From assembly GCF_045037415.1 (NCBI RefSeq), contig NZ_CP173438.1: a stretch of 64,000 bases of DNA; one strand, given 5' to 3'. Shown here one piece after another: positions 48,501 to 54,500 of this stretch (position 1 is its first letter; the number at the start of each line of letters is the position of its first letter). This stretch comes from Escherichia coli. GTDB taxonomy: Bacteria > Pseudomonadota > Gammaproteobacteria > Enterobacterales > Enterobacteriaceae. Position numbers: made by a program.

Positions 48501-51500
48501 TCCTGATACATTTCCAGCACCAGTTGAGGATGGAAAAGCTGCAATACGTTACCTGAGAGAGCATGCCAGCAATTATGGGATTGATCCTCAAAGAATCGGA
48601 GTTCTGGGTGACTCTGCCGGTGGATGGCTTGCCCAGATGATGGGAACTACAAATGGTGACAAAACCTTTGATAAAGGTGACTTTCTTCAGCAATCCTCAG
48701 ATGTTCAGGCAGTTGCCACACTTTATGGGATTTCTGACTTGTTGAATATTGGCGAGGGGTTCCCTGAATCAGTGCAGGAGGTTCATCGCTCTCCTGCCGT
48801 AACCGAAGCCTTAATGATCAATGGCCCTGCATTCAGAAATTTTGCGGGAGCCCCCATCACAGCGTCAAAAGAAAAAGCGCTAAACGCCAGTCCAATCGGA
48901 CATATGAAAGGAGTAAAACCCCCATTTCTTATTATGCATGGTAGCAAAGACACTCTGGTTTCACCTGAGCAAAGCGCCAAACTATTCAGGATGTTGAAGA
49001 AGAACGGTGATAACGCTGAGTACGTGCTGGTAGAAGGGGCCGAGCATGGCGATAAGACATGGTATCAGCCAATTATTATAAACAGAGTCGTTGAGTGGTT
49101 TACTAAAAACCTGGGAGCGCCTATAAAAACAGCTCCCCAACAACAAAACCCGTAAGCGTCAACGGAGCACCGTATTGACGCTTATTTATTGGTGAGTACT
49201 ACGTTCCATGGCAGGAGTTCGTCAACTCGGTTGGAAGGCCATTCCGGCAGTACGCTCAGGATATGGCGCAGATACGCTTCCGGATCGATACCGTTCAGAC
49301 GGCAGGTGCCGATCAGCCCGTACAACAGTGCTCCACGCTCGCCGCCGTGATCGCTGCCAAAGAACATAAAGTTTTTCTTTCCGAGACAGACTGCACGAAG
49401 CGCTCTTTCCGCAGCATTATTATCCGCCTCCGCCAGACCGTCATCACTGTAATAACAGAGGGCATCCCACTGATTCAGTACATAGCTGAACGCTTCGCCC
49501 AGTCTGGATTTTTTCGACAGCGTACCATTCTTCTCCACCATCCATTCATGCAGCGACGTCAGTAACACTTTGCTTCGCTGCTGCCTGACGGCAAGACGCT
49601 CTGACTCCGGTAATCCCCGTATTTCATCCTCGATGGCGTACAGTTCACTGATTCGCTTCAGGGCTTCTTCTGCCGTCGCACTTTTGCTGCTGATGTATAC
49701 ATCGTGGATTTTTCGCCGGGCATGGGCCCAGCACGCAACTTCTGTCAGTGCACCACCTTCACGTTCTGCACTGAACAACCTGTCGTAACCTGTGAACGCA
49801 TCCGCCTGCAGGATACCCCGGAAGGGGCGGAGGTGTTGCTCCGGGTGTTTCCCCTGCCGGTTCGGCGAGTACGCGAACCAGACCGCTGGAGGAGATGACG
49901 AACCCACATTGCGATCATCCCGGACATACGTCCAGATACGCCCTGTTTTCGCCTTTTTCTGACCCGGTGCCAGTACCTTTACCGGTGTGTCATCAGTGTG
50001 AACCTTGCGGGTGTTCATTACATAACGGTACAGGGCATCATTCACCGGTGTCATTAACTGGCAGCACGCGTCAACCCAGTTGGAGAGTAAGGCCCGGCTC
50101 AGTTCGACACCCTGGCGGGCAAAGATTTCACTCTGACGATACAGTGGCAGATGTTCGCAGTATTTTCCCGTTAACACGCGGGCAAGTAATCCGGGGCCCG
50201 CGATACCACGCTCTATCGGGCGGGACGGCGCCGGTGCTTCAACAATACAGTCACATTTTGTACAGGCTTTTTTTACCCGTTCTGTGCGGATCACTTTCAG
50301 GGCACTGCTCACCAGTTCCAGCTGTTCAGCGCTGACTTCCCCCAGATAATCCAGCTCACCGCCACACTCCGGGCAACAGCTTTCTTCTGGCTCCAGGCGG
50401 TGTATTTCACGGGGAAGGTGTGCCGGTAACGGACGACGATGGCGCGACTGTCGCAACTGGCGGGGAACCTGAGGATCGTCTTCCCGCCCACTGTAACGAT
50501 CGCTGTCCTGTTCACGTTGTTTCAGCAGAGCCTCAGCCAGTTCAACTTCACGACGCAGTTTTTCAGAACGGGTACCGAACAGCATCCGGCGCAGTTTTTC
50601 TATCTGAGCCCGCAGATGTTCTATTTCCCGTTCATCTTCTTCGATCTTTTCTTCGGCACGTGTCAGTGCAGAGCGCAGGAAGGCTTCCGTCTCTTCAACC
50701 AGACTCAGTTGCTGGTCTTTCTGACGGAGGGCTTCAGCCTGCTCAGAGAGCAACCTTTCCAGCTCTGCGATGCGAATGAGGTATTTCTGACTCATGACCG
50801 TTTTTATAATGCGGTCAGGAGTTTTTTACAACATTGTCAGTGAGTTACGGCTGGATGTTTTTGGCTGACGCCAGTCCAGCTTATCGAGGAGCATTGCCAG
50901 TTGCGAGCGGGTAATGGATACCTTGCCGTCACGTACCGCAGGCCAGATAAACTGGCCTTCCTCCAGGCGTTTGGTGAACAGGCACAGACCATCAGCATCA
51001 GCCCAAAGAATTTTGACGGTGTCACCCCGTCGGCCACGGAAGATAAACAGGTGACCGGAGAAGGGATTATCATTCAGCACATGTTGTACCTGTTCTCCCA
51101 GTCCGTTGAAGGATTTACGCATATCGGTAACGCCGGCAACGAGCCAGATACGGGTACCTGATGGGAGTGAGATCATCTTCCCCTCCCGGTCAGTTCACGG
51201 ATCAACACTGTGAGCAGCTCTGGCGATGGATTTTCCAGCGTCATGTTACCGTGACGGAATTCCACCTTGCAGGAACTGGCACTGACTCTGGTCTGAGTGG
51301 AAGTGGATAAAGACGGCGCAATGGCCGCCACAGGTTCTTTCTGCTCATCCGGCGTTATTTCTACAGGTAATAATTCAACGCCAGTGTCAGAAGAGGTCGT
51401 TACCGGAAGACGCCGCGAAACACGCCCTTCGTTCTGCCAGAGCCTGAGCCATTTGAAAATAACATTATCATTGACGCCATTTTCACGTGCAATCTGTGCA

Positions 51501-54500
51501 ACACAAGCTCCAGGTTGTGATGCCAGTTCCACCATACGAAGTTTGAATTCATTCGAATAGTTTTTACGAGGTTCTTTTCGCCAGTCCTGTAATTCCATAC
51601 TTAGATGTCCGTCTATATCAGATGGGCGTCTAAGTTACCAATTCTCGTCTGATGGCTACATACGGCGGTCAGTTTACGCTTACCAAAACCCAAACGCTAA
51701 CCTGTAAAAAGAGGGAGGGCTAAGCCCTCCCCATTCAATTTTGTTAACTATCCTTTTCAGGTAGTTTTACAACATAAGTCCTTATTGTTTTCTCATATGT
51801 ATTTTTGCTATTCGTTATTTTGGCCTTAATCCAGTGATAACCACTTTCATAGGTGCTGAATTCCGAAGCTGCATTACCTGTCCAGTGTAACGTTACTGTA
51901 GCAGGCTCCATTTTGACCCGTTGAGAGTCTGGACTATCTTCACTACCAGCAGAAAACTCAACCGTACCAGATAATGGGTTTCCAAAATGATCGACAAATC
52001 GAGCATAAATACCTACTGGAGATCCATCGTTTGTCTCATAACCAGGATCTTTTGTTAGAGTCAATACTCCATTTGCGTCATCAGCGTACAGGGAGAATGA
52101 TTTCACCGCGCTAACATCACTGCCAAGTTCGTTTAAGGTCGCCGTTAATTTATACGAACCAACCGTTCGACCATGTACGCTTACCGTAGCCTGACCGTTC
52201 TCATCAGTCGTTACTGTGGTTTTATCAACCACCAACGCACCATATTTAGACGGCCCAGATGTCTTAACATTCAATGCTCGACCACTTAATGCTTCGCCTG
52301 ACTTACTTTTCAACAGTAACGTAAATACCAGATTGTTGGTATCGCTCACTACAGCCGAAGATGCAGATGATGTGATCTCCAACACAGCCCCCTTCACATC
52401 CGTCACGGCATCAATATTCTGGCTTGCGGTTATGCGTTTCCCATCCAGAACATACTCGGCCTGAATTGTGTACTGGCCTGATTTCGATGCAGTGAACTGC
52501 GTTGTTGCCTGTCCATGAGCATCCAGTTGCAGATTACTACTGGTCAATGATGCTCCCGTCGATGGTGTAATCGTTAAATCCACCTCGCCTGTAAACGCAT
52601 TGTTATTCGCATCAACCAACTGAATGTTTACTGTTGCGTTTTCACTGCCATCGGCCACAATCTCCTGTTTTGATACACTCATATTCAGTTCTGCAGAAGC
52701 AACATCGGGCACAAAAGTTAACTTAACGCTGCCAGATTCCACGCTATGGGAACCGTCAGTCACCCGTGCAGTCACCGTGTACTCACCAGCTTTCACCGTT
52801 GTAAGCGGAACAGAAACATGCCCTGTTGAATCAGTCACGATATTTGTTGGTACAGATAATCCTTCAGATGAGGTGATGAGCTGAATCTTTTGCCCATTGA
52901 CCGACGCATTCGTATTTGTCAGCTGCACATCTAATACCGCTGCATCCTTACCATTAGCAGGAATATTGGAAATTAAACTACTGCTTTCAGGCGTCAGTGA
53001 CAGTGAAGCTCCGGTCATATTTGATGCAAAGGTCACTGTTAACTCAGTAGACATCTGAGAACCAGCATGAGCTGTAATCACGTAAGACCCCGGAGTGGAG
53101 CTTATTAACGCAAAAATAGCATTACCATTTTCGTCAGTTGAAACAGCATGTTCACCACCAACTTGAGTTATCCCTGCTGGTAAAGACAATGTGACAGCAT
53201 AACCAGGAACAACATTGCCGAAACGGTCCGCAAGGCTTACAGTTACCATATTTCTCTGTTTTCCATCAGCCAATGCATTATTTTGGCTGGCTTCAAACTG
53301 AGAGAATGTAACCTGCTGCCGGTCCTCAATAAAGGTGATTTCTTTCTTAACACCTGAGAAATCATGACTATCAGATTTAACACCGATAGTAATCTTACCA
53401 GCTCGTTTTGAAGTTACTGTCGCGCTATAGACACCGTCTTTTTCCGTTACAGTCCCAAACTCGACTCCTTCTGCCTGGTTAAGAGCATAAAAGCTCAGAG
53501 TGTTATCACCAGTGATTGCATTTCCTTGTGAATCCTTCACTGCCAGTTGTAGATTGATATTGTAACCAACTACCTGTTCTGCTGGTGCAGCGGTTAAAAC
53601 AGCACTGACCTCAGAATCAGGTTCTGTTGTTGCTGTTTGCTTAATACTGAGAGTAAATGTTTTTCCCTGAACTTTTGCAGTTACACGTACCGTACCAGCC
53701 TGCGAACCAGCAGCCAGAACAGAGCGATATACACCAGCAGAGATTTCCTCTACCGCGCCTAATGACGGAGCAGTTACCGTTTCACGCTGTCGAGCACTAT
53801 TGCTATCTGCTGTAAATTCCACTGACATTTCAATGTCATCAGCCAGTCCGGTTAATGCCTTACCGTTACTATCTTTCAGGCTTAATACTATCGGATAAGT
53901 GGATTGGCTATCAGCAGAGATCGTCGGCGACGAATCTCCATCCAGTGTAAAAGACGAATCAGCTGTCGATACATCACTATCAGTAATGGCTGCCTGCTTA
54001 ATATTCAGAGTAAAGGTTTTTCCCTGAACTTTTGCAGTTACACGTACCGTACCAGCCTGCGAACCAGCAGTCAGAACAGAGCGATATACCCCAGCAGAGA
54101 TTTCCTCTACCGCGCCTAATGACGGAGCAGTTACCGTTTCACGCTGTCGAGCACTATTGCTATCTGCTGTAAATTCCACTGACATTTCAATGTCATCAGC
54201 CAGTCCGGTTAATGCCTTACCGTTACTATCTTTCAGGCTTAATACTATCGGATAAGTGGATTGGCTATCAGCAGAGATTGTCGGCGACGAATCTCCATCC
54301 AGTGTAAAAGACGAATCAGCCGTCGAGACACCACTATCAGTAACGCTAATATTCATCACGGCATAGTTGGAAACGTTGCCTCTGTTATCCTGTACTGTGG
54401 CTCCAACATTCCACGAATTTACACCTTCGCTTTTATAAGCCGGTAAAGTGATCTGCCATGATGTGCCATTTCCACTGATCTTGCCGCCAGCCGCAGTGAA

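Follow-up and report, generated by a model that had tools for sequence, protein, structure and literature searches.

An ISEc23 copy near the 3′ end of a prophage esterase gene as a probable inherited marker of one ST131 sublineage of Escherichia coli

Where an esterase gene ends in a prophage of Escherichia coli, an IS66-type insertion sequence begins, and the first bases of the element hold the stop codon that the esterase now uses. This arrangement raises the question of how the element came to lie there: whether it arrived once or repeatedly, recently or long ago, and whether its arrival matters to the esterase, to the prophage or to the strains that carry it. We addressed this question in the window, by which we mean the whole 64-kb stretch of DNA analyzed, and by comparison with other E. 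coli genomes. The prophage adjoins a partial copy of icd and, besides its lambdoid structural genes, contains sitABCD and iss; the features surrounding the insertion are collected in Table 1.

Table 1. Features at and around the ISEc23 insertion (positions in the window).
Feature	Position	Strand	Evidence or remark
Alpha/beta-hydrolase, family IV / HSL-type esterase	48124..49155	+	BD-FAE 5.5e-45, Abhydrolase_3; GDSAG motif, lipoprotein-like signal
Target-site duplication, left copy, CAAAACCC	49144..49151		Exact repeat; forms the last codons of the present esterase
ISEc23 (IS66 family), complete, 2532 bp	49152..51683	Minus-strand genes	100% identity to annotated copies
Terminal inverted repeat, tnpC-distal end	49152..49175		GTAAGCGTCAACGGAGCACCGTAT
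Perfect 10-bp-stem hairpin in IS end, TAAGCGTCAA / TTGACGCTTA	49153..49184		Inverted-repeat search, folding
tnpC, DDE transposase, 537 aa	49182..50795	-	PF03050 9e-98 (Pfam search, profile positions 1-283/284), NF033517
tnpB, IS66 accessory protein, 116 aa	50826..51176	-	PF05717 1e-36, NF033819
tnpA, helix-turn-helix accessory protein, 141 aa	51173..51598	-	PF01527 5e-12, NF047595
Terminal inverted repeat, tnpA-proximal end	51660..51683		ATACGGCGGTCAGTTTACGCTTAC
Target-site duplication, right copy, CAAAACCC	51684..51691		Exact repeat
Orphaned last four esterase codons and native stop, AAC GCT AAC CTG TAA = NANL*	51692..51706	+	Reconstruction
Bidirectional intrinsic-terminator hairpin, G+C-rich	51712..51732		Between native esterase stop and inverse-autotransporter stop
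Inverse-autotransporter (intimin/invasin-like) adhesin gene, convergent neighbor	51744..55652	-	IatC/intimin/SinH N-terminal models, all matches under equivalog cutoffs

The element has the architecture of the IS66 family throughout. Its three genes are consecutive on the minus strand in the order tnpA-tnpB-tnpC, with the ATG of tnpB overlapping the stop of tnpA (ATGA) and a 30-nt gap ahead of tnpC, and all three are full length against Pfam and NCBIfam profiles, in keeping with an earlier note on this DNA that had called them intact. TnpC is an IS66-type DDE transposase (452 bits against NF033517, cutoff 180) with the zinc-finger and leucine-zipper region of such proteins, its further domains being zf-IS66, LZ_Tnp_IS66 and IS66_C (PF13005, PF13007, PF13817), and it is accompanied by an IS66-type TnpB and a helix-turn-helix TnpA, the latter scoring 83 bits against NF047595 (cutoff 74). 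The ends are imperfect inverted repeats with arms of 24 nt that are complementary at 20 of 24 positions (83%) and flush with the element ends. Both arms open with GTAAGCGT, and the first bases are GTAAGCG, with which IS66-family inverted repeats reportedly start. Many ISEc23 copies in RefSeq E. coli match the window element at 100% over all 2532 bp, a copy covers at least 80% of this length in 2488 genomes, and the identical copies that we fetched encode the same three proteins as the window (WP_000422741.1, WP_000624722.1 and WP_000080195.1). Judged by this identity, the window element is ISEc23 of the IS66 family, an ordinary and previously annotated copy; the name is the RefSeq/PGAP label carried by identical copies, “IS66-like element ISEc23 family transposase.” ISEc23 elsewhere in RefSeq E. 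coli has the same sequence and an 8-bp duplication, and differs from the window copy only in its insertion site; one copy is carried by the ST131 plasmid pEC958 (PMC4398462). The tnpA-tnpB-tnpC organization, with tnpC encoding the conserved transposase, is that described for the family (PMC6778807). IS66 of the Agrobacterium Ti plasmid and IS679 of the E. coli plasmid pB171 share this gene order, the conserved TnpC transposase and an 8-bp duplication with ISEc23, although at the sequence level they are different elements and are likened to it here by description.

On either side of the element stands a copy of CAAAACCC, and the identity of the two direct repeats is exactly 8 bp, extending no further in either direction. 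This octamer occurs at only two places on the plus strand of the 64-kb window, both flanking ISEc23, and two octamers at given positions would agree in all eight letters by chance with a probability of 4^-8, or about 1.5e-5. The earlier note had described identical 8-bp flanks and had placed them correctly. An 8-bp target-site duplication is what has been reported for IS66 itself (PMC6778807), and perfect 8-bp duplications, each a different A+T-rich sequence, also flank seven of eight other 100%-identical ISEc23 copies; among these eight, we found no target consensus or hot spot beyond A+T-richness (n = 7). The insertion had further been placed exactly at the esterase stop codon. The stop now in use is a TAA at 49153-49155 within the first bases of ISEc23, but the target itself precedes the native stop by 12 nt (4 codons). 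The reading frame crosses the junction as CAA AAC CC/G TAA (the slash marks the boundary), and the esterase now ends ...QQQNP*. The site is thereby a tidy case in which an IS66-type terminus (G-TAA-GCG) supplies the stop codon at the junction.

Comparison with an empty-site allele, which the earlier note had suggested, proved informative. When ISEc23 and one copy of the repeat are deleted in silico, the 1200-bp result is 100% identical to the corresponding region of the ST131 genomes EC958, JJ1886 and others, so the empty allele consists of the two flanks joined by one copy of the duplication, and a single locus matching at least 80% of the reconstruction is present in about 420 complete E. 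coli genomes. The occupied site is likewise found in other genomes: at least 56-60 complete genomes (at least 56 in one piece) match the 4532-bp stretch across both junctions at 100% identity and in the same orientation, and 72 genomes carry the occupied site at a coverage of at least 80% of the 4532 bp. These genomes come from Italy, Japan, Switzerland, Thailand, Kazakhstan and the USA, several are labeled O25b:H4-ST131, and one of them, Ecol_AZ146, annotates the occupied site under locus tags BE932_RS29190-29205. Four occupied strains (p4A, p11A, TO217 and Ecol_AZ146) have been described as ST131 with a common chromosomal TnMB1860 insertion, and the Ecol_AZ146-type pathogenicity island has been assigned to subclade C2. 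Taken together, the identical junctions and shared markers suggest that the occupied site is an inherited marker of one ST131 sublineage. The earlier description of the insertion as recent therefore stands on an evolutionary scale only, as at least 60 complete genomes have identical junctions and the insertion is not confined to this strain. Public, annotated genomes already document all of this, from the element with its family and 8-bp duplication to the insertion itself, and its presence here is of little significance. By presence or absence, the site does cleanly tell one ST131 sublineage, at least 60-72 complete genomes out of about 490 with this prophage cassette, from the rest.

The history that we strongly favor, and regard as very probable, is a single transposition of ISEc23 into CAAAACCC, 12 nt before the esterase stop, in an ancestor of one sublineage of the pandemic ST131 clone, followed by inheritance in all descendants, among them the strain of the window. 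By analogy with the family, TnpC together with TnpA and TnpB would have joined the GTAAGCG... ends to staggered target cuts 8 bp apart, and repair of the gaps after end joining would have created the 8-bp duplication. Three consequences can be read directly in the sequence: the esterase has lost NANL and now stops at the TAA of the IS terminus, it is uncoupled from the bidirectional terminator that it had in common with the inverse-autotransporter gene, and the path from P to nin/Q has grown by 2.5 kb, the IS genes being oriented as the operon is. An alternative history, in which CAAAACCC is a hot spot that received ISEc23 repeatedly and independently, in the same orientation, in different strains, appears highly improbable. 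It would fit the position of the target 20 nt from a strong hairpin, a kind of structure that some IS families target, and a second ISEc23 site with identical flanks (duplication CAAAAACT) in strains 4/4 and AR_0086 can be read either as a hot spot or as shared ancestry. However, the seven ISEc23 sites have no target sequence in common, the listed occupied genomes are all 100% identical over 4532 bp with a single orientation, and about 420 genomes have the same target empty despite ISEc23 being common in E. coli. The independent chromosomal marker TnMB1860, common to four carriers, also argues for descent from one insertion event.

The consequences for the esterase protein appear to be slight. 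The protein is 343 aa long in the window versus 347 aa in empty-site genomes (annotations of 1032 nt and 1044 nt, respectively). The reconstructed empty site encodes ...QQQNPNANL*, which is how the alpha/beta hydrolase annotated in EC958 (1044 nt, 347 aa) ends, and the previous reading that only four C-terminal residues were removed is thus confirmed by the loss of NANL alone. Matches to Pfam domains end by residue 331. A useful comparison is the isolated Escherichia phage 4A7 (Bievrevirus), which encodes the same esterase (99.4% DNA identity, 347 aa) without an IS. In 4A7, the gene sits in the same slot, antisense and just upstream of ybcN/ninE/rusA/Q, and is followed by a terminator hairpin as in the window prophage, whereas its neighbors are a recombinase, a QacE-like gene and ren in place of the inverse autotransporter. 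Because the 4A7 protein ends ...QQQKTNADL rather than ...QQQNPNANL, the tail is variable, and the residues lost in the window lie in this variable tail, outside the catalytic domain. The truncation is thus probably harmless.

At the level of transcription, ISEc23 puts 2.5 kb between the esterase gene and its formerly shared bidirectional terminator. That terminator has 9 pairs, 7 of them GC, with a T-tail on the minus strand (-25 kcal/mol, z = -4.9, minus strand). A second hairpin, in the IS end itself, extends over the tnpC stop and has a T-rich run after it whichever strand is read, with a minimum free energy of -24.3 kcal/mol (z = -5.5) on the plus strand and -26.5 kcal/mol (z = -3.9) on the minus strand; from these features, it may be a terminator for tnpC and now for the esterase transcript as well. 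When the whole window was scanned with Rfam models at their gathering thresholds, nothing matched, so no known RNA element accounts for this hairpin or for the gene-free stretch after the repressor. Separately, loss of the native terminator could alter the stability of the esterase mRNA or create antisense transcription into tnpC.

Within the prophage, the minus-strand order is cro-like, ydaT-like, O, P, inverse autotransporter, IS tnpA/B/C, ybcN, ninE, ybcO, rusA, ylcG and Q. The IS genes thus lie between O/P and nin/Q on the same strand, as expected for the early-right operon of a lambdoid phage, and the esterase is on the opposite one. The earlier note had placed the insertion inside this operon, which is correct in that the element lies between P and nin/Q, but the esterase is antisense, the site belongs to a cargo cassette with its own terminator, and the phage genes are intact. 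This cargo (moron) cassette, between the replication gene P and the nin genes, measured about 5.7 kb before ISEc23 added 2.5 kb, and both the adhesin gene and the terminator are untouched by the element. With no phage gene broken and the lost esterase residues outside the catalytic domain, we infer a neutral or nearly neutral effect.

The opposite view is that the insertion is functional and was selected, either by hindering delayed-early transcription that runs from the rightward early promoter to Q and so helping to lock the sitABCD/iss “PAI-icd,” or by altering expression of the esterase or the adhesin. We consider this unlikely. There is indeed a single path between P and nin/Q, ISEc23 lies on it and cuts the esterase off from its terminator, inspection of ORFs in the window revealed no N-like gene between the cI-like repressor and kil, and the carrier sublineage is widespread. 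Against this, even before ISEc23 came in, the path ran over a strong bidirectional terminator and through 5.7 kb of cargo, of which 1 kb is the antisense esterase. The IS genes are co-oriented with the operon, and the adhesin gene keeps its terminator. It is also well established in lambda that antiterminated polymerase reads through IS-borne terminators, and the resistance and virulence cargo of the sublineage offers a simpler account of why it has spread. For a broader proposal, that ISEc23 not only marks one globally spread ST131 subclade-C2 sublineage but also contributes to it, via damped Q or altered esterase/inverse-autotransporter expression, we likewise see only a slim chance; if it were true, damped Q expression could stabilize the sitABCD/iss prophage. 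At the least, the insertion would be a handy PCR marker for such a sublineage, and its position on the P-to-Q path could help to probe whether the sitABCD/iss prophage, which is of medical relevance, can still be induced. As a side point, the 2.5-kb addition, or terminators within the IS, could lower Q expression on prophage induction.

A further question is whether the element can still move. Identical ISEc23 copies are found at at least six distinct sites with their own duplications, and this, together with the intact genes, makes it plausible that the window copy is still active. A formerly mobile copy that is now unable to transpose is improbable, although the element has stayed in place in at least 60 genomes, and in one genome with the occupied site, A1.S1.126, the ISEc23 copy has itself been split by ISEc52. 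Against such a relic, none of the three genes is truncated, neither inverted repeat is damaged, and many other sites, with duplications of their own, hold copies of 100% identical DNA. Places matching the element number 7 to 14 among close relatives, which suggests ongoing gain or loss, and the persistence of a copy where it was before is no sign that it is inactive.

Finally, the prophage that carries the active or inactive copy is itself of a known kind. PAI-536-icd and PAI-EC14142-icd of uropathogenic E. coli are prophages at icd with sitABCD and iss, as in the window, and a published description of the ST131 icd island fits the window prophage and mentions no ISEc23 in the island (PMC9686529). 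EC958, unlike the window, has the icd island without ISEc23. A pair of tail-fibre pseudogenes is annotated both in the occupied Ecol_AZ146 and in the empty EC958, and this lesion, which does not by itself decide viability (the side tail fibre gene of laboratory lambda is broken too), predates ISEc23.

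Sequence reading and a script check place the element at window positions 49152-51683 (2532 bp), in agreement with the earlier note. The flanking 8-mers are identical, and the identity extends over exactly 8 bp: the bases preceding the two copies differ, as do those following, and no further copy of CAAAACCC was found by script on the plus strand of the window. At the left junction, the frame of the esterase, a prophage α/β-hydrolase gene, reads ...CAA AAC CC/G TAA (...QQQNP, then stop; the slash marks the junction), and the element thus supplies the stop codon as well as the final base of the terminal proline codon. 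When the flanks are joined with one repeat copy, the ending ...QQQNPNANL is regained. The insertion lies 12 nt 5' of the native esterase stop and 20 nt before the terminator hairpin.

Coordinates of the element, its genes and the prophage features discussed in the text
Feature	Position in window	Strand	Size	Remarks
Target-site duplication	49144-49151 and 51684-51691		8 bp	CAAAACCC
Terminal inverted repeat, imperfect	element ends		24 nt	20/24 complementary; begins GTAAGCGT
ORF 1 (tnpA)	51598-51173	minus	141 aa	Pfam HTH_Tnp_1
ORF 2 (tnpB)	51176-50826	minus	116 aa	Pfam TnpB_IS66, 1e-36
ORF 3 (tnpC)	50795-49182	minus	537 aa	Pfam DDE_Tnp_IS66, 9e-98, profile 1-283 of 284
Esterase	48124-49155	plus, opposite to operon	343 aa	convergent with adhesin; Pfam BD-FAE, Abhydrolase_3; GDSAG motif; lipoprotein-like leader
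Bidirectional terminator	51712-51732		9-bp stem	G+C-rich
Inverse-autotransporter adhesin	51744-55652	minus (operon strand)	1302 aa
Partial icd copy	about 14904-15071			adjoins prophage
sitABCD	16985-20434			beyond tail genes
iss	43713-44006			beside lysis genes

The tnpB start overlaps the tnpA stop (ATGA), while 30 nt separate tnpB from tnpC, whose product also matches the IS66 zinc-finger, leucine-zipper and C-terminal modules in Pfam. NCBIfam is concordant, with all three proteins above a curated cutoff. Target duplications of 8 bp and the tnpABC gene order have been published for IS66 (PMC6778807), and the element shows all the family-defining features that sequence can reveal. A megablast search of 5,426 complete E. 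coli genomes found many records, chromosomal as well as plasmid, that match the 2532 bp with 100% identity, and all of them are annotated with "IS66-like element ISEc23 family transposase" plus tnpA and tnpB; judged by nucleotide identity, the element is the same as the copies named ISEc23. Copies covering at least 80% of it occur in 2488 of these genomes, with a median of 3 and a maximum of 47 matching places per genome. ISEc23 is commonly named in the resistance-plasmid literature, and the ST131 plasmid pEC958 carries one copy (PMC4398462). With all three genes full length and identical copies at many other sites, we assign a low probability to the copy in the window being dead. Within ISEc23, directly upstream of the tnpA start codon, lies a palindrome (51599-51635) with 16-nt arms, ACTTAGATGTCCGTCT and AGATGGGCGTCTAAGT, that are 81% complementary around a 5-nt spacer. 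Its possible role is that of an operator or of a hairpin that regulates expression of the transposase.

Eight further ISEc23 copies, each 100% identical, were compared for their duplications. Seven have exactly the same element boundaries and perfect 8-bp duplications: GAAAGAGC, CAAAAACT (twice, at the same site), TTTTATGT, GCTTAATG, CTTGTTAA and GTTGTTGT. Beyond their A+T-richness, no target consensus is common to the seven. The eighth copy, on a plasmid of AR_0086 (NZ_CP032202.1, 143-2690), is flanked by AAACTGCC versus CTTGAGCC, with no duplication, and adjoins a truncated traX, which points to recombination between two copies or to a deletion mediated by the IS.

Both the empty and the occupied allele are found in other genomes. 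A 1200-bp empty-site reconstruction (600 bp per side, one repeat copy) occurs at 100% identity in many genomes, EC958, JJ1886 and SK1144 among them, and at least 80% of it is covered in one place in 420 genomes; the EC958 hydrolase is annotated as 1044 nt, 347 aa. For the occupied allele, a 400-bp left-junction probe has full coverage in 67 genomes, and at least 56 genomes match a 4532-bp probe (the IS with 1 kb of flank on either side) at 100% identity without a break, with 72 reaching at least 80% coverage. Sources include patients (Italy, Japan, Kazakhstan, USA), a dog (Thailand) and wastewater (Switzerland), and several of these records are labelled O25b:H4-ST131. The occupied locus of Ecol_AZ146 is annotated, in agreement with our reading of the window, as a 1032-nt hydrolase, ISEc23 tnpC, tnpB and tnpA, and the inverse autotransporter; its genome is collinear with the full window at 99.96-99.997% identity, except for one tandem-repeat unit. 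Four carriers (p4A, p11A, TO217 and Ecol_AZ146) have been described as ST131 with a common chromosomal TnMB1860 (blaCTX-M-15/blaOXA-1) insertion, and an Ecol_AZ146-type pap/hly/cnf1 island has been assigned to subclade C2. The simplest reading is that the element inserted once, in the strain ancestral to a C2 sublineage, and was then inherited, and a hot spot receiving repeated independent insertions is improbable beside it. The earlier note called the insertion recent, which holds in evolutionary terms, since neither the duplication nor the IS copy has diverged, but not as a new event in this strain, as the occupied allele is found in many genomes. This very insertion is already annotated in dozens of RefSeq genomes and is nothing new in kind; in practice it is mainly useful for marking one ST131 sublineage. 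In strain A1.S1.126 (NZ_CP146588.1, 3152856-3158641), ISEc23 at the same site is interrupted by the IS3-family ISEc52, the match to the occupied-site probe spanning 5786 bp in 2 pieces; this nested insertion inactivates that ISEc23 copy.

Up to ~14.9 kb, the window consists of E. coli chromosome (ycgN ... minCDE ... bluF ... ymgL), and from there a lambdoid prophage (about 14900-64000) continues past the window end. It carries a full lambda-like head and tail set, lysis, Q, nin, O/P and recombination genes, and cro-like and cI-like repressor genes, and matches the "PAI-icd" island of ST131 (PMC9686529) and uropathogenic E. coli. A cargo cassette, made up of the adhesin, the esterase and the bidirectional terminator, is placed between P and ybcN, the latter holding the ninB position. 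The lipoprotein-like esterase N-terminus, taken with the convergent adhesin gene, suggests that the two cargo products are surface-exposed. The element had been described as lying inside the early-right operon; physically it does, but no phage gene is interrupted and the esterase is off the operon's coding strand. Before the IS arrived, the operon path already led across a strong terminator and through 5.7 kb of cargo, and the IS genes run in the operon's direction.

Three further features of the prophage were observed. The esterase N-terminus (48124-48200, MKINKILSSATLLYGMSMAMSVGSC...), read by eye, resembles the signal sequence of a lipoprotein, including a lipobox Cys. The adhesin contains a tandem repeat (53638-54343) of a 357-bp unit (119 aa, Ig-like domain) in 2.0 copies, versus 3 in EC958 and Ecol_AZ146, so that the protein has 1302 aa rather than their 1421; near-identical strains differ in the in-frame repeat number of this surface adhesin. 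The side tail-fibre gene (21107-23128) is annotated as two pseudogene fragments ~630 bp apart, and since the pair is present in both occupied (Ecol_AZ146) and empty (EC958) genomes, it is older than the ISEc23 insertion.

The insertion removes four esterase residues from a tail that lies past the Pfam domain matches, which end by residue 331, and is variable between homologues, and the truncation is probably harmless. It also detaches the native terminator from the esterase gene and increases the P-to-nin distance by 2.5 kb. At the IS end, a hairpin (49153-49184) with a perfect 10-bp stem (-24.3 kcal/mol, z = -5.5) is followed by UUUAUU and may stand in as terminator for the esterase transcript. 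A functionally selected insertion has a low probability. From what is classically known of lambda, antiterminated polymerase would transcribe through the IS.

In lambda, the leftward early promoter and gene N occupy the position equivalent to 59250-59760, between the cI-like repressor (58494-59249, plus strand) and kil (at about 59845). This ~500-bp interval contains no ORF of at least 45 aa, no N-like ORF lies between repressor and kil in the window or is annotated there in EC958 or Ecol_AZ146, and Rfam gave no matches within the window. One idea is that an HK022 put-type RNA, acting in cis, would allow passage through the prophage terminators, including that beside the adhesin. Phages PhiR34_1 and Turner share the ORF-free stretch at 100% and 99.5% identity, respectively.

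The isolated, viable lambdoid phages 4A7, Lambda_4C10, D2, 1W, 3W and Perceval carry this esterase in the same slot at 99.4% identity, where, unlike in the window's prophage, it has 347 aa, other neighbours and the C-terminal tail ...QQQKTNADL. In phage 4A7 (NC_049946.1, 6425-10302), the next genes after the slot encode a member of the serine recombinase family and a QacE/EmrE-like small multidrug transporter, and then comes ren; these stand in place of the inverse autotransporter. The nin region is a busy site of cargo exchange. Phage 4A7 also carries an OmpC-like porin gene between Q and the holin gene.
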